Source: Escherichia coli
GTDB lineage: Bacteria; Pseudomonadota; Gammaproteobacteria; Enterobacterales; Enterobacteriaceae
Length of the DNA stretch: 64,000 bases
Direction: 5' to 3' (one strand)
Assembly: GCF_044324875.1 (NCBI RefSeq)
Contig: NZ_CP172185.1
Part shown: piece by piece, positions 33,151-53,135 of the stretch
How the letters are laid out: each line of letters starts with the position of its first letter
Position numbering within the stretch: the first letter of the stretch is position 1
Translations under genes and position numbers: made by a program
Notes under the pieces: generated by a model
Databases searched by the model: none
What the model was told of the DNA's origin: nothing
Seen by the model: the letters and a program-made list of their open reading frames with translations, nothing else

Positions 33151-33972
33151 ATGCGTACAACCATTGCTGTAGTGTTGGGTGCAATTAGTTTGACGTCTGC
33201 TTTTGTGTTTGCAGATAAACCAGACGTTGCCAAATCGGCAAACGATGAGGTCAGCACCCTGTTTTTTGGTCATGATGATCGTGTGCCAGTGAATGACACG
33301 ACCCAATCACCGTGGGATGCGGTTGGCCAACTGGAAACGGCCAGCGGCAATTTATGTACGGCGACGCTGATTGCACCCAATCTGGCATTAACGGCAGGAC
33401 ACTGTTTATTGACGCCGCCAAAGGGTAAAGCCGATAAAGCGGTGGCGCTGCGTTTTGTGTCAAATAAAGGTCTTTGGCGCTATGAGATCCACGACATAGA
33501 AGGCCGCGTTGACCCGACACTGGGAAAGCGGTTAAAAGCAGATGGGGATGGTTGGATTGTTCCTCCCGCAGCTGCGCCGTGGGACTTCGGTTTGATTGTG
33601 CTACGTAATCCCCCTTCTGGCATTACACCATTGCCGTTATTTGAGGGAGATAAAGCCGCGCTTACCGCCGCATTAAAAGCGGCAGGTCGTAAAGTGACTC
33701 AGGCGGGATACCCTGAAGATCATCTCGATACGTTGTACAGTCATCAAAACTGTGAAGTGACTGGCTGGGCGCAAACGTCGGTGATGTCGCATCAGTGCGA
33801 TACCTTGCCGGGTGACAGCGGTTCGCCTCTGATGTTGCATACCGATGACGGCTGGCAATTAATTGGGGTGCAAAGTTCGGCTCCTGCCGCGAAAGATCGC
33901 TGGCGCGCCGATAACCGGGCCATTTCTGTTACCGGTTTTCGCGACAGGCTGGATCAACTGTCGCAAAAATAA
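33151..33972 (+). CDS. ydgD: YdgD secreted trypsin-like serine protease, 273 aa
   Basis: Signal peptide; TAGHC (His) and GDSGSP (Ser) catalytic motifs. Confidence 0.9.
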
Positions 33973-34010
33973 TGTTCAAACGCTGCCCGACAGCGCGGGC
34001 AGCGTGTTCA

Positions 34011-34340
34011 TCAGGCAAGTTTCACCATGATCATTCCAGCCAACAGCAAGACCAGGCCAATCCAGCCTTTACGATTTAACCGTTGACCAAACAAGATCCA
34101 ACCTGCGGCTAACGTGGCGGCAATACCAAACCCGCCCCACAATGCATAAGCGACAGACAAGTCGATCCCTTTAACGGCCTGAGAAAGCGCACTAAAGGCA
34201 GCCAGCACCGCCGCCAGAGAGAGCACGCCAAATATTTTGCGACGAAAGCCGTCAGAAAATTTCAAAAAAACGTTAGCAACGATTTCCAGCACGATTGCCA
34301 ATGCCAGCCAGGCGGCGTGAACCCATTCAAACTGCGCCAT
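34011..34340 (-). CDS. mdtI: MdtI SMR-family spermidine exporter subunit, 109 aa
   Basis: 4-TM SMR translation; overlaps mdtJ. Confidence 0.9.
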
Positions 34341-34692
34341 GGTTCACCTCCAGTTCAGGTTTACGCGCTTTACGGGTACCTGATTTGATCAACACAATCC
34401 CGGCCACCAGGGTGGTTAACCCGGCAATTTTCATCAGCGATAAACTTTCGTCGAATAACAAAACGCTAAACAAGGTAATAAATAAAATACCGATACCTTC
34501 CCACAGCGCATAAGCCACGCCTAAGGCGATCTTTTTAACGGCGAAAGAGAGAAATATATACGACAGAGAAATCATCACCAGCATTAAAATAAAGCCGCCA
34601 TTTCCCTCACTGACGCTCGCCCATTTCATGGACAGCGTACCGGTAATTTCTGTAGCAATAGCCAGACCTAATAAAATCCAATAAATATACAT
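34327..34692 (-). CDS. mdtJ: MdtJ SMR-family spermidine exporter subunit, 121 aa
   Basis: 4-TM SMR translation upstream of mdtI. Confidence 0.9.
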
Positions 34693-35103
34693 TGTCCTTC
34701 TCCTGCAAGAGAATTATTTTAATTTTCGCTTAATTCAGCGAAACCAAAGTAAAGTGGTCAAGCTCCGCGCATGGCGCAAGCTTAGGCAGAAGTAAGGACT
34801 AAAGCGCGTTGCGCCAGTGTTGCTCACCTACGAGCAAGATAGTGGATGAGGTACGAAGATGGGTAAATGTAGAAAATAACGCCCTGAACAAATTGTCCAT
34901 AATATTACAATTATCCGCAGTGTTGCTTCTCGTCATCGCGGATGATAATTGTCCTCGGTAGTTGAACACGCCTGATTTGTATCATAGCTTAAGAATTAAC
35001 TCAAAATATTTTCACTTCTTTACCTGAGCGGTTTGATTTTCGTTATGATGACGGAGCGAAAAAGACATTATTATTAGCAAAGGAAGAAAAAACGGGGACA
35101 AGC

Positions 35104-35240
35104 ATGGCAAAGCCGATCATCACGCTCAATGGCCTAAAAATCGTCATTATGTTGGGAATGCTGGTCATTATTCTCTGCGGTATCCGTTTTGCCGCCGAGA
35201 TCATCGTGCCGTTTATTCTCGCATTATTTATTGCTGTTAT
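35104..35240 (+). pseudogene. tqsA: tqsA (AI-2 exporter) 5' fragment, first ~45 codons, truncated by element insertion
   Basis: ATG at 35104 encodes [45 protein letters not shown], then the frame runs into AT-rich foreign sequence and stops within ~25 bp; the rest of the gene resumes at 50814. Confidence 0.88.
35232..35240. repeat. Left attachment-site core (attL), 9-bp TGCTGTTAT
   Basis: Same 9-mer recurs at 50813-50821, where the tqsA reading frame resumes. Confidence 0.7.
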
Positions 35241-35316
35241 ATATAACTTATTTCACTTAACACATTGATTTAATTAAATAATTTACACTACAAAAAGTGC
35301 CAAAAATCGCAAATTA

Positions 35317-35369
35317 ACTACACCATTAACTACACCGTTCGGCGCACTGTATGAAACAACGTGGAACAA
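35317..35369 (+). repeat. Left-arm repeat cluster: 2x ACTACACC (12-bp spacing) then GAAACAACGTGGAACAA
   Basis: ACTACACC at 35317-35324 and 35329-35336; 17-mer at 35353-35369 recurs inverted at 49334-49350. Confidence 0.6.
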
Positions 35370-35559
35370 ATAGGCACAAGAAATATAAAGGCGGGTAATT
35401 TTTAGGGGGCGTTAATGTCGATATGGGGATCCACATATCGAGATTGATACCTGGCTTTTTTTCCGGTTAACCTTTAATCAGGCTGGTGGGCTTTACCTGT
35501 TCTGTAGGAGTGGTCATTATGACCATTCAGCCAATGACCTTAATCAGAATTTTTCGCTA

Positions 35560-35590
35560 AAAAATGACGTTGGCCACGTCATCCGGAAAG
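35560..35590 (-). terminator. Probable terminator at the end of the packaging operon
   Basis: Palindrome atgacgttggccacgtcat followed by a T6 run on the minus strand. Confidence 0.45.
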
Positions 35591-35652
35591 CACAAAATCA
35601 CGTCGATTTTTAATGGATGGTTAAACCGTCTTTATCTCGATGTCCGTACGTA

Positions 35653-35943
35653 TTACGTACGCAGTCGTTCCGGCTTCTTCCAGTGGTACGTATTTTTCGC
35701 GCTCTCCCTCCGTTGTTGAGAACGGCGACGGTATGCCAGCAACTCAAGGACTCTTGTTCGTATGTTGCGCATATCCACGCCGTTAAGCTCAATACCATCA
35801 CGGCGCATCACCTCCGCAACAACACGCACATAATTTTCGGCGGTCACGCTGTCCGGCTGCGTGGCCTGTTCGTCATGCTGCTGGCTGATTCCGGTAACGC
35901 GGCGGATTAATCCCAGTAGTTCGGCTTCGCTCATTCTCGTCAT
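35653..35943 (-). CDS. Hypothetical protein (96 aa), start overlaps terL stop (ATGA)
   Basis: ORF start overlaps the terL stop; no recognisable motif. Confidence 0.4.
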   Translation of the reverse strand: MTRMSEAELLGLIRRVTGISQQHDEQATQPDSVTAENYVRVVAEVMRRDGIELNGVDMRNIRTRVLELLAYRRRSQQRRESAKNTYHWKKPERLRT

Positions 35944-37601
35944 ACCCCATCAAACGCCGCAAGCCGCTCTTTGTGGCTGTCGCTCATATCGAATGCAAAT
36001 TCCTCATGCTCTGCCTGGAATGTGCCAAACGCCATCAGCGCCGCAACGCTCGGGTCTATCTTGTTGGATGATTTTTTCTTGTTCGGCTTGATATTGGCGT
36101 TCGCGTCACTCTGCATCACAACATTACTCATTGACCAGGCCAGCACCGGATCACCACGATGCACAATCACCTTCCGGTTAACAAAAACTTCGAACGATTT
36201 CGCCGCCGGACTGAAACGAAGGTATGTTTGCGGGAACGGCTCCACCTCAAATCCCGCCCCCTGTAGCTGTGTTCTCAGGTGAGTGGCGTTCCATGTATCG
36301 AAGCCCACCAGCCTGATACTGAAATTCTCTGCATCCGCCATGATGTCATCACGGATACGGTCATAATCAATGCAGTCACCCGGTGTTGTGCGTATCCAGC
36401 CAGCCTTTACCCACTGGCGATAGATGGCGCGGTTTTTATTGGCGGGGTTCTGTAGCTGAAATTCCGGCAGATAGTGACGGGAAACCAGCATAATTTTTTT
36501 ACCGACCGGGAAGGCATAGCACACGCTGGAAATATCGCTGGTTGATGATAAGTCCAGCCCCGCGTAGCACTCCTGCCCGTATAAATCCGCCTCCGCGAAC
36601 GTTCCGGCGCACTCCGCCCATGCACCGTTACCCATCCACGGCGTAGCCCCCTGACACCAGATATTGAATCGCTTGGTGAGCATTTCCACCCACTGCGACG
36701 GAATACCCCGCGCTTTCTGGATGGTTGAGGCCAGTTTTTCACGATCGACGGAAACATCGATATTGGGATTCGCCTTTATCCACATCGCCGGATCGTCAAC
36801 CTCGCTTTCATCATCCAGCTCGTAAATCAGCACGAACATGGATTCGTTCACCTCTTCACCATCCAGTATCTGGCAGCAATAGTCATAGTGTTGTTTACAG
36901 GCTGAAACAACGTTGCTCCCCGATGTGGTGATGGCAAATAACAGCCCCTCCGGACGCGCCCCCATTCCCAGCTCAAGCGCGGAATAAACCCCGTTGTCAG
37001 GGTGCAGGTGATATTCATCCACAATGGCAAGACTCGGGTTTGTACCTTCAATGGTTGCCGCTTTTGCTGCCAGTGGCTTTAACAGGCTGTTGGTTTTCGC
37101 GTGTATCACCTTGTGTGCCTGAATATTTACCCGCTTTCGTAACGGTCGGGATAAAAGGCACATCTGACGCGCATCATCAAACACGATCCGCGCCTGATCA
37201 CGACTCACGGCGGCGGTGTAAATATCCTGCTGCCCGTTTTCCATAACCAGAAACCAGTTAGCCAGGATAGCGGCGACCGTGGATTTGGCATTTTTTCGCG
37301 GTACTTCAATGAATGCGCTGGTGTATTTGCGCCGTCCGGTGGCCTTAACCTTAAAGCCCAGGATGCACGCAAAGGCGAACTGCTGCCACGGCTCCAGCTC
37401 AATGGGGCTACCGCGCATTGCGCCTTTTACGTGCGGACACACCCTGGAAAAGGCAATAAACCGCTCCACGACCTCCGGATCGAACGTGTAAAGGGGGTTT
37501 TCAAGGTCAGAAAAATACCGTTTAACAGCCTGTTTCAGTCGTTTACAGGCCGTAATTTTGCCGTTTTTTACGCCTTCTGCGTACTCATGCCAGGCGGTCA
37601 A
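35940..37601 (-). CDS. terL: Terminase large subunit, 553 aa
   Basis: ATPase P-loop-like VPRKNAKST and Walker B-like LAIVDEYH, C-terminal nuclease-like region; overlaps terS 3' end. Confidence 0.85.
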   Translation of the reverse strand: MTAWHEYAEGVKNGKITACKRLKQAVKRYFSDLENPLYTFDPEVVERFIAFSRVCPHVKGAMRGSPIELEPWQQFAFACILGFKVKATGRRKYTSAFIEVPRKNAKSTVAAILANWFLVMENGQQDIYTAAVSRDQARIVFDDARQMCLLSRPLRKRVNIQAHKVIHAKTNSLLKPLAAKAATIEGTNPSLAIVDEYHLHPDNGVYSALELGMGARPEGLLFAITTSGSNVVSACKQHYDYCCQILDGEEVNESMFVLIYELDDESEVDDPAMWIKANPNIDVSVDREKLASTIQKARGIPSQWVEMLTKRFNIWCQGATPWMGNGAWAECAGTFAEADLYGQECYAGLDLSSTSDISSVCYAFPVGKKIMLVSRHYLPEFQLQNPANKNRAIYRQWVKAGWIRTTPGDCIDYDRIRDDIMADAENFSIRLVGFDTWNATHLRTQLQGAGFEVEPFPQTYLRFSPAAKSFEVFVNRKVIVHRGDPVLAWSMSNVVMQSDANANIKPNKKKSSNKIDPSVAALMAFGTFQAEHEEFAFDMSDSHKERLAAFDGV

Positions 37602-37941
37602 GCTCGTCCTCTTCCTCTGTTTCCGGTGGATTTCTGCGGCGGCTTACCGGGTCAAAACCCAGCAAAGAAGCCATTTTGATCATTATTCTTTCCGCGTCAG
37701 CCTTTGCGCTCAGGGCGGGGTTTCTGCTCTCGCTGCCCTGACTGTTAACAATGCTGAACCCGCGCGTGGCAAGGTCTTCGACGGCTTTGCGGTATATGGA
37801 GTAGTTAACGCAATACAGCTCCAGATTGCTCCAGTCGGCGGGAGTAAGGTCTTCCCGTCCGGAAAGCTGGCGCGATTTTTCCTTCCACTGCCTGACCGCG
37901 ATTTCATCCAGGTAAGCGGGGGCTTTTGGTGGTCTTGCCAT
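37585..37941 (-). CDS. terS: Terminase small subunit (P27-type), ~118 aa
   Basis: Translation MARPPKAPAYLDEIAVRQWKEKSRQL...; overlaps terL start by 17 nt. Confidence 0.7.
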   Translation of the reverse strand: MARPPKAPAYLDEIAVRQWKEKSRQLSGREDLTPADWSNLELYCVNYSIYRKAVEDLATRGFSIVNSQGSESRNPALSAKADAERIMIKMASLLGFDPVSRRRNPPETEEEDELDRLA

Positions 37942-38004
37942 GTTCTTTTTTCGCCCAATTATTTTCAAAAAAATTCCCGTGCACAAAAATTTGAGCAGGC
38001 GGTC

Positions 38005-38060
38005 GGTTCTGGGCGGGGTCGGGTTCGTCCTGAAAACTCCCCCCCACCCCGTCCGGCTGC
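38005..38060. other. Candidate cos/packaging-initiation region (GC-rich, lambda-cosN-like)
   Basis: gggcggggtcgggttcgtcc and ctcccccccaccccgtccggc between the HNH module and terS; resembles the lambda cohesive end GGGCGGCGACCT. Confidence 0.35.
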
Positions 38061-38064
38061 CTCA

Positions 38065-38247
38065 TCAGCGATTGCGGAAACATTCCATAACCTCGCGGTC
38101 ACGGTCGTTTAATCGCGTCGCTGTGATGCGTTCTGCGCGTCCTGATGCTTTATCTTTATGCCCTGTTTCCTGTGCCTTCCATGCGTCACGCTGCCTTATC
38201 AGTCCACGAATAAGGCTGTTTTGTTCCCGTTCATTCATCAGCGTCAT
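38065..38247 (-). CDS. Possible small hypothetical protein (60 aa) between HNH and terS
   Basis: Internal ATG of the 38065..38481 ORF, starting just before the HNH stop. Confidence 0.3.
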   Translation of the reverse strand: MTLMNEREQNSLIRGLIRQRDAWKAQETGHKDKASGRAERITATRLNDRDREVMECFRNR

Positions 38248-38671
38248 ACATCCAGTTATTGCGGTTGGCTGCCCGTTCTTCCTCCTCACGGAATCCGCCA
38301 ACTGCACGCTTGTTTTTTGTGGCCGGATCAAGCCATTTCGTTTTCTGGTTATGACACGCCTGACACAATGGCTGATGATTCCACTCAGGCCAGAAGAGAA
38401 CATCATTACCGCCATCGATGGGGATAATGTGATCCACCACCACGGCGGGCGTGTATATTCCTTTTTCCAGGCAATGCGCACATAACGGGTTTTTACTCAG
38501 GTACATAGCGCGGTATTTCTCCCACTGCCTCGTATACCCTCGCTCCCTGCTGCTGCCTCTCCGGCTGTCCTGCTGCTGGCGTGCGCTGCGTCTGTGCTCC
38601 TCACACTTGCCGGACTTCACGCGCCTGTTGCAGCCTGGTTGTGTGCATCGTCTCAATGGTTGCCACGGCAT
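38231..38671 (-). CDS. HNH endonuclease (terminase-associated), 146 aa
   Basis: Zn-finger/HNH motifs CTQPGCN...CEEH, CAHC, VDHIIPIDGGND, NHQPLCQACHNQK. Confidence 0.85.
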   Translation of the reverse strand: MPWQPLRRCTQPGCNRRVKSGKCEEHRRSARQQQDSRRGSSRERGYTRQWEKYRAMYLSKNPLCAHCLEKGIYTPAVVVDHIIPIDGGNDVLFWPEWNHQPLCQACHNQKTKWLDPATKNKRAVGGFREEEERAANRNNWMYDADE

Positions 38672-38967
38672 CAGTACACCCCCACATCACGATAAACCGA
38701 CCAGAGCGCGGAAATCGTCAGGGGAATTTCTTTTGTATCGGTATCGCCAAGCGTTGTCCGGTACTCGTACAGTTGCGAGATGTACATCAGGCAACCAATT
38801 TTTATTGCAGGGGTAAATTCCAGGCCGTCATCAAAACGCCTGCCAATATGCTTCTGGCATACCTCCAGCGCCGCGCTTATGTATGCCTGAATCAGTGTGT
38901 CTTCTGTGTTACCATCTATGCGGCAGTGAAGTTTGGCCTCTTCCAGGGTTATTTTTTCTGCTGTCAT
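38671..38967 (-). CDS. gp6-like head-tail connector protein, 98 aa
   Basis: N-terminal LEEAKLHCRID...DTLIQAYISAALE signature. Confidence 0.65.
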   Translation of the reverse strand: MTAEKITLEEAKLHCRIDGNTEDTLIQAYISAALEVCQKHIGRRFDDGLEFTPAIKIGCLMYISQLYEYRTTLGDTDTKEIPLTISALWSVYRDVGVY

Positions 38968-39302
38968 TTTTCTGTACCCACCTTTGCCAGAATTTCCAGC
39001 CGGGTTCTTTTCGCATCAGGTAAGGGGATCCCGATGATATTAAGCGTGCTCCCGGCAAAAGCGCCGGTAAGCACTTTCAGGCGACTGGCGGCGGATATGT
39101 CGCCACGATAGCGAACCCATACCCGAATCGTTGCAGGTGCGGTTTCTGCGCCTGCGGTCAGTAATTCCCGTCCGCTGATCCCCTTGACCTCTGCCCAGAT
39201 GGTTTCCCCTTCCGTCCATATCTGCTGGATCGCACCTGACGGCAGGCGCTGTGTGGTAAATGTCATAATCGTCACCCGGTCCCGCATCTTTCCGGCTATC
39301 AT
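38964..39302 (-). CDS. Head-tail joining / head closure protein, 112 aa
   Basis: Size, position next to portal, and the typical RDRVTI...WAEVKGISGRE pattern. Confidence 0.6.
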   Translation of the reverse strand: MIAGKMRDRVTIMTFTTQRLPSGAIQQIWTEGETIWAEVKGISGRELLTAGAETAPATIRVWVRYRGDISAASRLKVLTGAFAGSTLNIIGIPLPDAKRTRLEILAKVGTEK

Positions 39303-40516
39303 TCGTCACCGCCCTTACTGTTCTTGCTGATTGTCACTTCCTGCTTCCATGCCTGGCTGAACTCGTCGCCACCTTCACGCGGCGGCATTCCCTCACGCTC
39401 ACGGGCTTCGTTCGGATTGATGATCCCGTTCTTAATCCCTTTCTCATACGTGGCGTAACGTTCGGTAGGGGTGGCGCGTAATAAATCGGCTGAATCAAAC
39501 TCAACCAGATAACGGGTACCAGGTACGGGAGAAGCCACCAGCAAAGCAGCCTTGATTTGCTGTTCGAAGTTCGCCAGCCACGGGCGCATTGTCATGGTCA
39601 GAAACGCGCGGCTTGCCTCACTGAAATTGCTGTAGGTGCTGTTGCTGTATTCCTGCAAAAAAATCGGCGAGACGTTGAACATTCGGGCGATGTCTTCAAT
39701 GGTAAAGCGACGGGAGGCCAGCCATTCAGCATCCTGATTACTCATGCCCAGCTGCTGATAGCTCATACCCCCTTCAAGGATGGGCGTTTTTCCGGCGTTT
39801 CTGGCCCCTTTGTAGCGTTCCAGTGCGGCTAATGCCTGTTTGCCCTTCACGCCGTCCAGCCATTCGCCTGACGTGATAACCCCTGCCGCCATCATGCCAT
39901 CACGCATCACGCTCGCGCCGTGGCGTTGTTGGGCCAGCCCAAGCCCCAGCGATTCGCGGCAGATGGTTACAGGTGAGCGCCCCATAAAGCCGTCATCCGT
40001 GGAGTAACGAAGGTGGAGAACCTCCCACGGTAAATAGTTGCGGGTGTTTCCGGTGTAGGCGTCAGTGATGCAGTAGCGCCAGTTATGCTCACCTGTCTGC
40101 TCCACGTTCACCGACTGCGGCGGGTAAGGATGTAAAGCCACCGGAAAACCATCACGCCCCCACTGAATAACCGCATAAGCATTACCGTTTAACAGGCAGT
40201 GGCGGATCATCATTCGCTTAAACTGGTAGGGGGTTTGCCATGCGTTCGGGCGCTCGTTGAGGATGTGATCGACCGGATGAGAATCAAGCCACTCGCGGGC
40301 CTCCTTCCCCTTCTCATTGCGTACCAGGTACAGGTAACACGGCATGGTAGCCACCGCCTCAGAGATGACCGTCACGGCGTTCATGACGGCGGGCAGTGAT
40401 TCCGCTGTCCCCGATGATACGTACTCACCCGCCCCCGTGTTCGATGTGCCCGCCAGCGCCATAAATTCATCAAGCGTCATGCTGCGCTGCTCTTTTTTTC
40501 TTCTGAAAAGCCACAT
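39299..40516 (-). CDS. Portal protein (HK97-type), 405 aa
   Basis: Length and position between protease and connector genes; HK97-portal-like translation. Confidence 0.8.
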   Translation of the reverse strand: MWLFRRKKEQRSMTLDEFMALAGTSNTGAGEYVSSGTAESLPAVMNAVTVISEAVATMPCYLYLVRNEKGKEAREWLDSHPVDHILNERPNAWQTPYQFKRMMIRHCLLNGNAYAVIQWGRDGFPVALHPYPPQSVNVEQTGEHNWRYCITDAYTGNTRNYLPWEVLHLRYSTDDGFMGRSPVTICRESLGLGLAQQRHGASVMRDGMMAAGVITSGEWLDGVKGKQALAALERYKGARNAGKTPILEGGMSYQQLGMSNQDAEWLASRRFTIEDIARMFNVSPIFLQEYSNSTYSNFSEASRAFLTMTMRPWLANFEQQIKAALLVASPVPGTRYLVEFDSADLLRATPTERYATYEKGIKNGIINPNEAREREGMPPREGGDEFSQAWKQEVTISKNSKGGDE

Positions 40517-40517
40517 A

Positions 40518-41090
40518 TCACACCCCCGCTAAATCCACCCACCAGCGGCGATTATCCGCACGCGGCATTTTTTCGGGGTGCTGCTCATACAGGGAACGGC
40601 GGGCCAGCTCCACGCCAGAATCGGGGTAAGCCGGTACCGATGTAACGGTAATTTCGTACAGTTCCGCCACCAGCACGGTACGAACGCATGGATCTGTTGT
40701 GGTATCCCATACATCCTTACGGGAGCGAAAGCCAAAGCTCATGCCGGATATATCACCGCGTTTAACCAGTTCGATAACGTCGCGCCCTGTACTGGTATCC
40801 GGTGGGGTCAGTTCAAAGCGTAACCCTGTTTCGTCCTCTTCCAGTTTCAGCGTGCCGGAACGGGTGCGCCCCAGTAACATGCTGTGGTCATGCTCATACA
40901 GGCCGCGAACGTCATTACCCGCCGCAAGCCATTCAGTAAACGCCCCCCGCTGGAATTTTTCGTAAAACTCACCCCATAACAGTTCTGAAAGCTTATCCCA
41001 GCGAACAACGTAGCCCGTCAGCGTACCGGCTCCGCTCGTGGTGATTTCCGATGACCGGATTTCCATACTCTTCATAATTTTTTCACCCAT
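40518..41090 (-). CDS. Prohead protease (HK97 family), 190 aa
   Basis: Translation resembles HK97-type prohead protease; lies between capsid and portal. Confidence 0.75.
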   Translation of the reverse strand: MGEKIMKSMEIRSSEITTSGAGTLTGYVVRWDKLSELLWGEFYEKFQRGAFTEWLAAGNDVRGLYEHDHSMLLGRTRSGTLKLEEDETGLRFELTPPDTSTGRDVIELVKRGDISGMSFGFRSRKDVWDTTTDPCVRTVLVAELYEITVTSVPAYPDSGVELARRSLYEQHPEKMPRADNRRWWVDLAGV

Positions 41091-41129
41091 AAAACACTAA
41101 AGGGGCTTTTAAGCCCCTTCTGTATGCTG

Positions 41130-49033: not shown

Positions 49034-49316
49034 TATTGCCCCCTTTCGTTTCTTAAAGAGTTATTTCGTGTTCTATTGCGTTGGTATGTGTCTGATTGTG
49101 TCAGGGTGATTCAGAGTTGGCAAATGTTGGTGGCGGGTATTTTACAGAAACGGGGTAATTTTAATAAAAAACATTTTAATTCAGTATTATGCAAAGGCAT
49201 AAAATCTCGTTTTATGCCTTTTTTCTCACTATTTAAAGCGTTATTCGCTAATGTATAAAAAACCAGTTGAGCATTAAAAATCAGCAACTTATAAGTCTGT
49301 ATACTTTTTCGCCTCT

Positions 49317-49359
49317 TGTTCGTGGTTGTTCCACGTTGTTTCACATTGTTCGCCGTTGT
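49317..49359 (-). repeat. Phased GAACAA-type repeats between int and alpA, inverted relative to the other copies
   Basis: Minus strand reads CAACGGCGAACAATGTGAAACAACGTGGAACAACCACGAACAA; contains both 17-mers found at 35353-35369 and 42512-42528. Confidence 0.6.
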
Positions 49360-49407
49360 ATCTGTGTGCTTATCCAGTATGCGCATACTGAAAAAACACG
49401 AAAAAAA

Positions 49408-50637
49408 TTATTTTCTTCTGGCTACTGGTAGCGTGGTTACGTTTTCATGTGCTCCCGCCAGTATCTCCAACCGCTCCACCCACATATCCAGCGCATTGCG
49501 TTTCGCATCCAGATAACGGGAATGATTATAAACTCGCTGCATTCCTGGCATCTGGTGGCCTGTAAGCTGCTCCACGACATGCGGATCAACGCCTAAATCG
49601 TTCAGCATGGTTGTAAAGGTGCGCCGGATGTCATGCAGTGACCAGTGAGGGTGTTTAAGCCTCCTGTGCGCTAATCTTCCATACTGCGATACGCTGGCCT
49701 CCTGTTTCACTTCCCCCAGCAATAAGCCCGTGTGCCTGTTCTGCTCCACCAGCTGCGTGACGAACGGCAGTATCGCTTCCGGTATGGGCCGGAATATGGC
49801 TACCTTCGTTTTGCTGTGCTCCTTCGGAACGGTCCATAGCATTTCGGTAAAATCCCACTCCCCGATCTCCGATAGCCTCAGTTCTACTGTCCTGGCTCCG
49901 AAGACAATCAGGAGGCGGATTAGTGCGACGTAGTAAGGGGAAAATATTTTTTTATCCAGCGCCTGCAATAACTCGCCCAGTTCTTTGGTGCTTAAGACAC
50001 GTTCGCTTATATCCGGTTTTTTCCCAACGTCCGCCACGTTCAGATCGTCCAGAACGTTGCTGATTGCATAGCGCCGCCTACGGCAAAACTTAAGCGCCTG
50101 TTTGCACGCCTGTAGCACGAATCCGGCAGTAACAGGCGTTCGCTTTGCCACCTGGTCAAAACAGGCCAGCCAGTGCCGTAGCTCGCATTTATCCAGCGGC
50201 ATAGCACCAATGTGCTGTATTACGTGATTATTAACTCGCCTTTTCAGGGCGATATAATCCACGCGGTTTTCCTTTACGTAAGACTCAAGCCAGTAGGTGA
50301 GCGCATCGCCAACCGTTACCGGCTTTAACGCTTCCTGTACGGCGTAATTCATCTCATGGCGTGGATTTTTCCCCTCCGCCAGCCATGCGCGACACTGGGC
50401 GGCTTTTTCCCTGGCTGCTTTCAGGCTCAGATCAGGATAATTTCCCAGCTTAATACGTTCCGGTCGTGTCTCTCTTCCCGTTCCTGCCCTGTAAGTGAAA
50501 TACCAGGTTAATATCCCTGATGTTAAATATTTCACGCTCAGATTTCCGCCATCGCTATAAAACGTGTTTTTCTCCGCTGGCTTACCATGAAGTTTCCTTA
50601 GCAAGGTATCGCTCAGTTTGTTCATTGCTCTGCTCAC
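49408..50637 (-). CDS. int: Tyrosine integrase (P4-like family), ~405-409 aa
   Basis: C-terminal catalytic region HDIRRTF ... RVYNHSRY; adjacent to the att junction. Confidence 0.88.
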   Translation of the reverse strand: MSRAMNKLSDTLLRKLHGKPAEKNTFYSDGGNLSVKYLTSGILTWYFTYRAGTGRETRPERIKLGNYPDLSLKAAREKAAQCRAWLAEGKNPRHEMNYAVQEALKPVTVGDALTYWLESYVKENRVDYIALKRRVNNHVIQHIGAMPLDKCELRHWLACFDQVAKRTPVTAGFVLQACKQALKFCRRRRYAISNVLDDLNVADVGKKPDISERVLSTKELGELLQALDKKIFSPYYVALIRLLIVFGARTVELRLSEIGEWDFTEMLWTVPKEHSKTKVAIFRPIPEAILPFVTQLVEQNRHTGLLLGEVKQEASVSQYGRLAHRRLKHPHWSLHDIRRTFTTMLNDLGVDPHVVEQLTGHQMPGMQRVYNHSRYLDAKRNALDMWVERLEILAGAHENVTTLPVARRK

Positions 50638-50664
50638 GCTTTACCCCTTGTTTACGAAAAAGTG

Positions 50665-50728
50665 ACTACACCAGTGACTACACCGATCGTTGCACAAAGG
50701 GCTACAACGTGAAACAAGCTGGAACAAG
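50665..50728 (+). repeat. Right-arm repeat cluster: 2x ACTACACC (12-bp spacing) then GTGAAACAAGCTGGAACAAG
   Basis: ACTACACC at 50665-50672 and 50677-50684; GAAACAA/GGAACAA repeats at 50709-50728; same layout as the left arm. Confidence 0.6.
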
Positions 50729-50812
50729 AAAAATCACAAATTTGTTTATAATCAAAAACATAATGAACAAACTGAAACATTATGAAACGGCAAAAAACAC
50801 TAATTGATAAAA

Positions 50813-50821
50813 TGCTGTTAT
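50813..50821. repeat. Right attachment-site core (attR), 9-bp TGCTGTTAT
   Basis: Direct repeat of 35232-35240; tqsA frame resumes here. Confidence 0.7.
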
Positions 50822-51719
50822 TCTTAACCCGCTGGTGCAACACATGGTCCGCTGGCGTGTGCCGCGTGTACTGGCAGTGTCGATTTTGATGACCATCATC
50901 GTGATGGCGATGGTGTTGCTATTAGCTTATCTGGGTTCCGCGCTCAACGAGTTGACGCGGACGTTACCGCAATATCGCAACTCTATTATGACGCCGCTGC
51001 AAGCGATTGAACCGTTGTTGCAACGCGTAGGGATTGATGTCTCAGTTGACCAACTGGCGCATTACATTGATCCGAACGCGGCGATGACGTTGCTCACCAA
51101 CTTATTGACGCAGTTATCTAATGCCATGTCATCAATATTTTTATTGCTGCTGACGGTGCTGTTTATGCTGCTCGAAGTGCCACAATTGCCCGGAAAATTT
51201 CAGCAAATGATGGCGCGTCCGGTTGAAGGGATGGCGGCGATTCAGCGTGCGATTGACAGTGTTTCTCATTATCTGGTGCTGAAAACAGCCATCAGCATCA
51301 TCACCGGCCTGGTCGCCTGGGCGATGCTCGCCGCACTCGATGTTCGCTTCGCTTTTGTCTGGGGATTGCTGGCCTTTGCGCTTAATTACATCCCGAATAT
51401 TGGTTCAGTTCTCGCGGCAATCCCCCCTATCGCTCAGGTATTGGTGTTTAATGGCTTCTACGAAGCGTTGCTGGTGCTGGCGGGATATCTGCTGATTAAT
51501 CTGGTCTTCGGCAATATTCTGGAGCCACGCATCATGGGGCGTGGGCTGGGGCTTTCCACGTTGGTGGTATTTCTGTCGTTGATTTTTTGGGGATGGTTGT
51601 TAGGACCGGTGGGTATGCTGCTTTCCGTGCCGTTGACAATTATTGTCAAAATTGCGCTTGAACAAACAGCGGGAGGTCAAAGCATCGCCGTTCTGTTAAG
51701 CGATCTCAATAAAGAGTGA
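50814..51719 (+). pseudogene. tqsA: tqsA 3' fragment (codons ~44 to end); no in-frame ATG upstream of the junction
   Basis: Frame continues ...[22 protein letters not shown]... to stop at 51719; in-frame stop TAA at 50808-50810 inside the element; only internal GTG/ATG starts available. Confidence 0.85.
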
Positions 51720-51742
51720 CGGCCTCCGCAGAGGCCGTCAGG
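51716..51742. terminator. Hairpin between convergent tqsA and pntB
   Basis: gacggcctc-cgca-gaggccgtc. Confidence 0.5.
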
Positions 51743-51743
51743 G

Positions 51744-53135
<1,392 letters not shown>

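Follow-up and report, generated by a model that had tools for sequence, protein, structure and literature searches.

The prototype of the capsid-forming PICIs (cf-PICIs) is EcCIEDL933 (bioRxiv 10.1101/2022.09.08.507074), and a pair of cos sites, cos1 and cos2, has been reported for the classical E. coli PICI EcCICFT073 (PMC6092414, PMC6739421). The island described below has the gene set of a cf-PICI, including an HK97-type capsid, and shares the direct-repeat borders. In two cf-PICI preprints, a term search returned no passage on a terminator, on the terminal 93/96-aa gene or on a noncoding tail, and the few passages on cos contained no cos position. Furthermore, the cf-PICI and PICI literature that we searched contained nothing on the tail region between the last gene and the attachment site. 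In the island analysed here, this region carries two palindromes, which we designated as Pal1 and Pal2.

The island in tqsA

The window (the whole analysed stretch of 64,000 nucleotides of an E. coli chromosome) contains a 15.6-kb insert within tqsA. The island junctions are formed by the 9-bp core direct repeat TGCTGTTAT (35232-35240 and 50813-50821): the first 141 nt of tqsA stop at 35240, and the gene picks up again at ~50818. The search query was matched by 5422 of the 5426 complete E. coli genomes, mostly just over the tqsA stretch; in comparison with E. coli genomes, the tqsA homology stops at 35240, with the island/chromosome junction at 35240/35241. The chromosomal flanks carry ydgD, mdtI and mdtJ (33151-34692) on one side and pntB (51744-53132) on the other.

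All island genes are located on the minus strand. According to PHROGs and Pfam matches, they encode an integrase (49408-50637), AlpA (48845-49033), an AAA_25 replication protein (44873-46279), SSB and PerC, the major capsid protein (41130-42332), protease, portal, head closure and adaptor proteins, HNH (38231-38671), TerS (Terminase_4; 37585-37986) and TerL, the terminase large subunit (35940-37601; phrog_9, E 3.5e-180). Tail or lysis genes were not found in the island with PHROGs or Pfam. With int, alpA and a replication module, its own capsid, protease, portal, connectors, HNH, TerS and TerL, a size within the cf-PICI range of 10-16 kb and att repeats at both ends, the island is a cf-PICI-like satellite, as classed from its genes and repeats. 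The minus-strand genes upstream of the palindromes (TerL, TerS, HNH, adaptors, portal, protease, capsid) bear out the initial annotation of this DNA, which spoke of a packaging operon and its last island gene. It had also placed the palindromes near attL. They are indeed roughly near the attachment junction (324 and 405 bp from it), but this end would be attR by prophage convention, because the integrase gene is located at the other end of the island.

The att arm at this end contains the IHF consensus AATCAATGTGTTA (35258-35270, minus strand), which is conserved in islands at the tqsA and phoQ sites, and two direct repeats TTAACTACACC (35314-35336, plus strand). The latter are candidate arm-type integrase sites and resemble the two copies of GTGACTACACC beside int. 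The arm-type repeat regions of the two att arms (35311-35386 and 50659-50734) are 74% identical, and in both arms they consist of two copies of ACTACACC plus GAAACAA..TGGAACAA. When the tail was searched for duplications elsewhere in the island, only this region matched. Between alpA and int, there is a third copy of the arm repeat, partial and inverted (49314-49355; 81% over 42 nt). The 16-bp sequence CAGTATGCGCATACTG upstream of the integrase gene (49375-49390) is a perfect palindrome and may be an operator.

Among known RNAs, a C4 antisense RNA (RF01695, 72 bits) is encoded on the minus strand at 47472-47559, accompanied by an a1/b1 target (RF03163, just under threshold) and an isrK-like match. 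By these matches, the region 47472-47676 is classified as a P1/P4-type RNA immunity region within the island. These were the only matches to Rfam 15; no covariance model matched within 34600-35700 at E≤1. Pairing of the C4 RNA with the tail was considered and rejected, with the best duplex at -37 to -39 kcal/mol as against -39.8±3.2 kcal/mol for shuffled tails.

The terminal gene

The last island gene (35653-35943, minus strand) encodes a protein of 96 aa (93 aa from the second Met) that matches phrog_1561 (E 3e-56). Its start overlaps the TerL stop, and the two genes are therefore expected to be co-transcribed. The protein has no Pfam and no PDB match; its identification with the structurally solved Rpp was rejected, since there is no PDB match. 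INPHARED phages queried with the protein and with the tail DNA gave no match. We found 1011 homologues of the protein; among the best 120 of them, those named by source come from E. coli, plus single entries from Salmonella enterica, Shigella sonnei and E. albertii. A search of genome contigs for related loci with this protein alone produced 165 pattern matches, none of which was confirmed.

The phrog_1561 gene is terminal in every related satellite examined. The packaging modules of the E. coli satellites that end in the 93/96-aa gene differ widely (TerL/TerS-P27; lambda-type TerS with capsid/decoration; DUF1441 with a protease-capsid fusion), and such islands are integrated at tqsA, phoQ, thiM, clpS and yifB and, in one case, within a prophage.

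A hairpin and T tract downstream of the terminal gene

Pal2 (35564-35582, minus strand) is a perfect 7+5+7 inverted repeat, reading ATGACGT-TGGCC-ACGTCAT on the plus strand and ATGACGT-GGCCA-ACGTCAT on the minus strand, with a 7-bp stem containing three G-C pairs and a loop of 5 nt. It is located on the operon strand, 71 nt past the stop codon of the last island gene, and a T tract (UUUUU in the RNA; 35559-35563, minus strand) lies directly 3' of the hairpin. The plus strand has six A's at 35559-35564, the sixth T of the minus strand being the last base of the Pal2 stem; the sequence directly after the stem on the minus-strand RNA is given as UUUUUU AG. The T6 run noticed at this place is thus TTTTT together with the last T of the stem, and both the run and the position of Pal2 had been annotated correctly.

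The Pal2 RNA hairpin has a folding energy of -8.1 kcal/mol (-10.1 kcal/mol with two G-U extensions), as against -13.5 and -21.2 kcal/mol for two textbook terminators folded likewise. Intrinsic terminators have a stem of at least 5 bp with a loop of 3-8 nt, and Pal2 is at the weak end of this range; it also has the U tract and the position after a stop codon on the coding strand. No terminator-like site other than Pal2 is present on the gene strand of the 407-nt tail. This result comes from our own non-greedy scan, which replaced a built-in terminator scan that had missed Pal2, presumably because the G-T extension of the stem eats into the T tract. Between the stop codon and Pal2 there is an A/T-rich inverted repeat, AAAATC-ACGTC-GATTTT (35594-35610), which is variable in relatives.

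As bare palindromes, Pal1 and Pal2 are not beyond chance. The window contains 9 perfect palindromes with 8-bp arms and loops of at most 5 nt (5.5±2.1 in dinucleotide shuffles) and 17 with 7-bp arms (21.0±4.7). In contrast, the combination of palindrome and T tract at the position of Pal2 is not chance-level: composite sites (perfect stem of at least 7 bp with at least three G-C pairs, loop of 3-8 nt, at least five T within the next 8 nt) occur 20 times in the window versus 1.9±0.9 in dinucleotide-type shuffles, an approximately 10-fold enrichment, and only about 0.006 such sites are expected by chance on one strand of the 407-nt tail. The other minus-strand composite sites that were checked are located just past ORF ends, at 51739 (pntB), 43103 and 41119 (capsid). 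The last of these sites, between the major capsid and protease genes (41100-41119, minus strand), is a strong hairpin AAGGGGCTTAAAAGCCCCTT (-17.3 kcal/mol) followed by UUUAGUGUUUUAU, and is likely a partial terminator setting the ratio of capsid to downstream expression.

Pal2 with its T tract is probably an ordinary, weak-to-moderate Rho-independent terminator of the island late operon. The late minus-strand transcript (capsid and packaging genes) would end 71 nt past the stop of its last gene, where AUGACGU-GGCCA-ACGUCAU would fold in the RNA and the following UUUUUU would allow the release of RNA polymerase. Of the two palindromes that the initial annotation had offered as a possible operon terminator, Pal2 qualifies by its strand, its distance from the stop codon, the U6 run, its being the sole site in the tail and the enrichment of its class; Pal1 has no T tract and is absent from almost all related islands.

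A second site faces Pal2 from the opposite strand. The tail (35400-35670) folds better than its shuffles on both strands (z -2.95 and -3.01), and on the plus strand it contains a long imperfect hairpin with the core TCGATATGGGGATCCACATATCGA, followed 3 nt later by T7 (35407-35462; the hairpin itself, 35407-35452, -21.1 kcal/mol, z -4.5). Relatives retain the T run of this site; their hairpin is different and farther from the T run. This terminator-like, convergent site resembles a stop for transcripts that run in from the truncated tqsA'. Pal2 and the opposite-strand site, which would halt host transcription coming from the broken tqsA, would then give the conserved noncoding module (35406-35633) the role of two convergent stops placed between the island and the chromosome.

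Conservation of Pal2 in a mosaic tail

The tail is a mosaic, whose segments are common to different islands in varying combinations. Its most widely shared piece (35406-35520) is present in many of the ~1000 matching genomes among the 5426 E. coli genomes, and the 98-bp piece bearing Pal2 (35536-35633) is covered to at least 80% in 191 of the 5426. Carriers of the latter piece include tqsA and clpS islands with different packaging modules. Relatives lacking the Pal2 segment mostly have no canonical terminator after the phrog_1561 gene. An IMG/VR scan with a flank pattern around Pal2 gave 8 matches, all of them unrelated chance ones.

Using a search pattern outside the palindrome, we aligned 23 copies of Pal2 from E. 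coli genomes and metagenomes, which represent 11 distinct sequences. The T tract is invariant in all 11. Four of the five loop columns vary, and the stem columns vary (3/14) at about the same rate as the flanks (13/46). No compensatory (double-sided) changes were found in the stem among the 11 sequences. The stem is weakened in 9 of the 11 (-6.5 to -4.4 kcal/mol), while a 5-bp core is kept in 9 of the 11. Seven variants (type B) carry ACGTCGT, so that one pair is mismatched (C-A) on the minus-strand RNA (-5.5 to -6.5 kcal/mol) and becomes G-U on the plus-strand RNA; in two other variants, two pairs are broken (-4.4 kcal/mol). A distant 54-bp homologue (81-85% identity) keeps just 3 bp of the Pal2 stem, and therefore what is conserved at Pal2 may be the sequence rather than the fold. 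This homologue (window 35545-35598 versus positions 1501-1554 of loci L040-L043, between ant/rha and icd-like genes) belongs to early regions of other PICI-like islands, where it has the sense orientation; the early region of the window's own island has no copy.

Conservation in related islands had been proposed as a check on the palindromes. Pal1 fails it. Pal2 keeps its sequence and T tract, but its stem is imperfect and uncompensated in the relatives. The conservation thus supports the T tract and the sequence of Pal2, and does not prove the fold.

The palindrome over the stop codon

Pal1 (35645-35661) is a perfect 8+1+8 palindrome, CGTACGTA T TACGTACG. Both palindromes thus exist as initially annotated, with coordinates off by at most 2 nt (Pal1 had been placed at ~35643-35660). 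The overlap of Pal1 with the end of the last island gene was confirmed as well, as its centre (35653-35655) is the minus-strand TAA stop codon of the 96-aa ORF. Pal1 is built of the tetranucleotide repeats CGTA and TACG, as (CGTA)2-T-(TACG)2, and its RNA would form a hairpin of about -10 kcal/mol on either strand. Neither strand has a T tract: the stem is followed by GACAUCGAGAUAAAG on the minus strand and by CAGUCGUUCCGG on the plus strand. Pal1 was consequently rejected as a terminator, being moreover missing from almost all related islands.

Of the 5426 E. coli genomes, 24 have the Pal1 segment. We found three types of island carrying it, namely the window island, L014 (at yifB) and L015 (at thiM). 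The L014 copy has one substitution, which still allows a G-U pair on the minus-strand RNA. Homology with most relatives breaks off at 35633 and restarts at 35660-35666, and the gene end in relatives reads ...GCGCAATTTTGCGTTATCGGGAATATCAGCAAGTTACCGCCG... In L015, the Pal1 version is a clean ~30-bp swap for the usual GGGAATATCAGCAAGTTACCGCCG end, with otherwise identical flanks. Synonymous codons preserve the C-terminus RLR(R/T)* of the protein across the replacement. Judged from these alignments, Pal1 is most likely a ~30-bp patch allele of the gene end, which is rare and self-complementary by coincidence, and most likely has no function; it forms at most an mRNA hairpin over the stop codon. 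A perfect palindrome on a stop codon can thus be an incidental allele.

Repeat units in the tails of relatives

The tails of the related satellites L001-L015 contain 1-5 copies of a ~54-bp unit in the same orientation (e.g., L015:2100-2400, L004:1900-2340), of which the window island has none. The unit consists of a 5-bp hairpin followed by TTTCGAAA and the IHF consensus WATCAANNNNTTR. The stems (CCTCA/TGAGG, CCCCC/GGGGG, CCTGC/GCAGG, CCACA/TGTGG) covary, with double-sided changes in 4 of the 5 pairs, and the observed score was reached in none of 500 shuffles. Many relatives have their last unit overlapping the terminal gene at its stop codon. In L001 and L009-L012, four direct GTCAC repeats with ~10-bp spacing (TGTCACGGTGTGTCACTGGTTGTCACTCTCCGTCACG) follow directly after the equivalent of 35633; this arrangement resembles a protein-binding array and is absent from the window island.

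It is a speculative idea, to which we give little weight, that the tail between the last gene and att is a dedicated, exchangeable "boundary module" of hairpin cassettes in E. coli satellites. If so, the form in the window would be the convergent terminators (Pal2 and the 35407-35462 hairpin with T7), the form in the relatives would be the 54-bp arrays with a covarying 5-bp hairpin and an IHF site, and Pal1 would count as a further cassette variant instead of noise. A module of this kind would shield the satellite from read-through of host transcription, and it might also arrange the end of the DNA for recombination or for packaging. A mosaic tail common to satellites with different packaging modules and integration sites may merit a specialist's look, independently of Pal1 and Pal2.

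Alternative explanations

Both palindromes might be functionless, neutral by-products of a mosaic, recombining tail, the T run of Pal2 being coincidental or serving something else. We regard this as unlikely, although it deserves the most serious consideration among the alternatives: the palindrome counts in the window are those of chance, the Pal2 stem decays in most variants with no compensatory changes, Pal1 is limited to 24 genomes, and the segments of the patchwork tail recur in various combinations. It has to be set against the ~10-fold excess of hairpins with T tracts over shuffles (0.006 expected in the tail), the invariance of the T tract, and a strand and position of Pal2 that are exactly those of an operon terminator. 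The initial annotation had also suggested protein-binding sites near the attachment arm, and the bound partner would be a dimeric DNA-binding protein (a regulator, an AlpA/Xis-like recombination factor or the product of the 96-aa gene). The half-sites of Pal2 are better kept than its hypervariable spacer (4/5 columns), ATGAC(C/G)/GTCAT-like words occur five times within 35512-35582, the GTCAC arrays of relatives (four repeats, 10-bp spacing) adjoin the Pal2 segment, and the distant homologue retains the sequence rather than the fold. Nevertheless, this explanation is improbable, as the half-sites of Pal2 are altered in 9 of the 11 distinct variants and Pal1 is missing from nearly all relatives. 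Moreover, the palindromes lie 324-405 bp from the core, past the recognisable arm elements, which are within ~100 bp of it, and share no motif with them; neither the integrase arm-type repeat nor the IHF consensus WATCAANNNNTTR is present at Pal1 or Pal2, such motifs being confined to 35258-35336. The suggestion thus has no support. To our knowledge, no protein is known or predicted to bind the Pal1 or Pal2 sites.

A coding role of Pal2 is highly improbable. Pal2 would be the start of a small plus-strand ORF (ATG at 35564, MTLATSSGKHKI...), or a leader or coding remnant of an early region that was moved into the tail. This ATG is invariant, the first 17 codons of its frame contain 13 substitutions, 8 of them synonymous (hand count), and the 54-bp homology to the ant/rha-icd-like interval of other islands is in sense orientation. 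However, there is no Shine-Dalgarno sequence, and the ORF is not stable in length (type B variants, 17 aa; others, 51-54 aa). The substitutions are distributed 7/3/3 over codon positions, an excess at position 3 that is not significant (hand calculation, chi-square p about 0.3), and the same third positions also fit a minus-strand frame that is just as short. In L040/L043, the longest ORF over this piece is in another frame, and the ATG frame has no specific support there. Small ORFs through Pal2 were consequently rejected on either strand as tiny, unstable, devoid of an RBS and without significant codon bias. Finally, that the palindromes are part of the packaging (cos) site of the island is scarcely credible. 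Some cos sites do show dyad symmetry, and PICI cos sites have been reported near this end in some islands (PMC6092414, PMC6739421), but the tail contains no lambda-type cosN (GGGCGGCGACCT; no match with at most 2 mismatches within 35000-51000), Pal1 is missing in nearly all relatives with the same terminase, and in the lambda-type relatives cosN is located upstream of the 93-aa gene. Indeed, L001, L003, L005, L009, L013 and L015 carry a cosN of the GGGCGGCGACCT type upstream of the terminal gene. In L001, L003, L009 and L013, two inverted lambda-like cosN (CGTTACGGGGCGGCGACCTCGCGG...) flank terS, matching cos1/cos2 of EcCICFT073. HK97-type machinery with HNH, TerS (P27) and TerL is expected to have its cutting site between HNH and terS. 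The 244-bp HNH-TerS gap (37987-38230, minus strand) contains a G-run/C-run motif, CGGACGGGGTGGGGGGGAG...CCCGACCCCGCCC, and would be a likelier candidate cos for an HNH-dependent terminase than the tail.

Comparison with known terminators, att arms and cos sites

With Pal2 read as a terminator, the late operon of a cf-PICI-like island gains a likely 3' boundary, which aids in annotating and engineering such islands and matters little alone. The result on Pal2 and Pal1 is a routine one at the level of annotation. The tail begins in the same way as the att arms of tyrosine integrases, with a core repeat, an IHF consensus and two arm-type repeats; Pal1 and Pal2 differ from such arms, as they are located 230-310 bp beyond the arm elements and contain neither motif. 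Compared to the lambda-type cos sites of EcCICFT073 (PMC6092414, PMC6739421), the palindromes are located in the same distal part of the island, but share no sequence with cosN or cosB. In comparison with the intrinsic terminators of E. coli and phages, Pal2 differs by its short stem, with only 3 of 7 pairs being G-C and about -8 kcal/mol, and, unlike in those terminators, this stem decays without compensation in most related copies. Nevertheless, it has the same architecture as they do, a stem-loop and then a U tract on the coding strand, just after the last stop codon of the operon.
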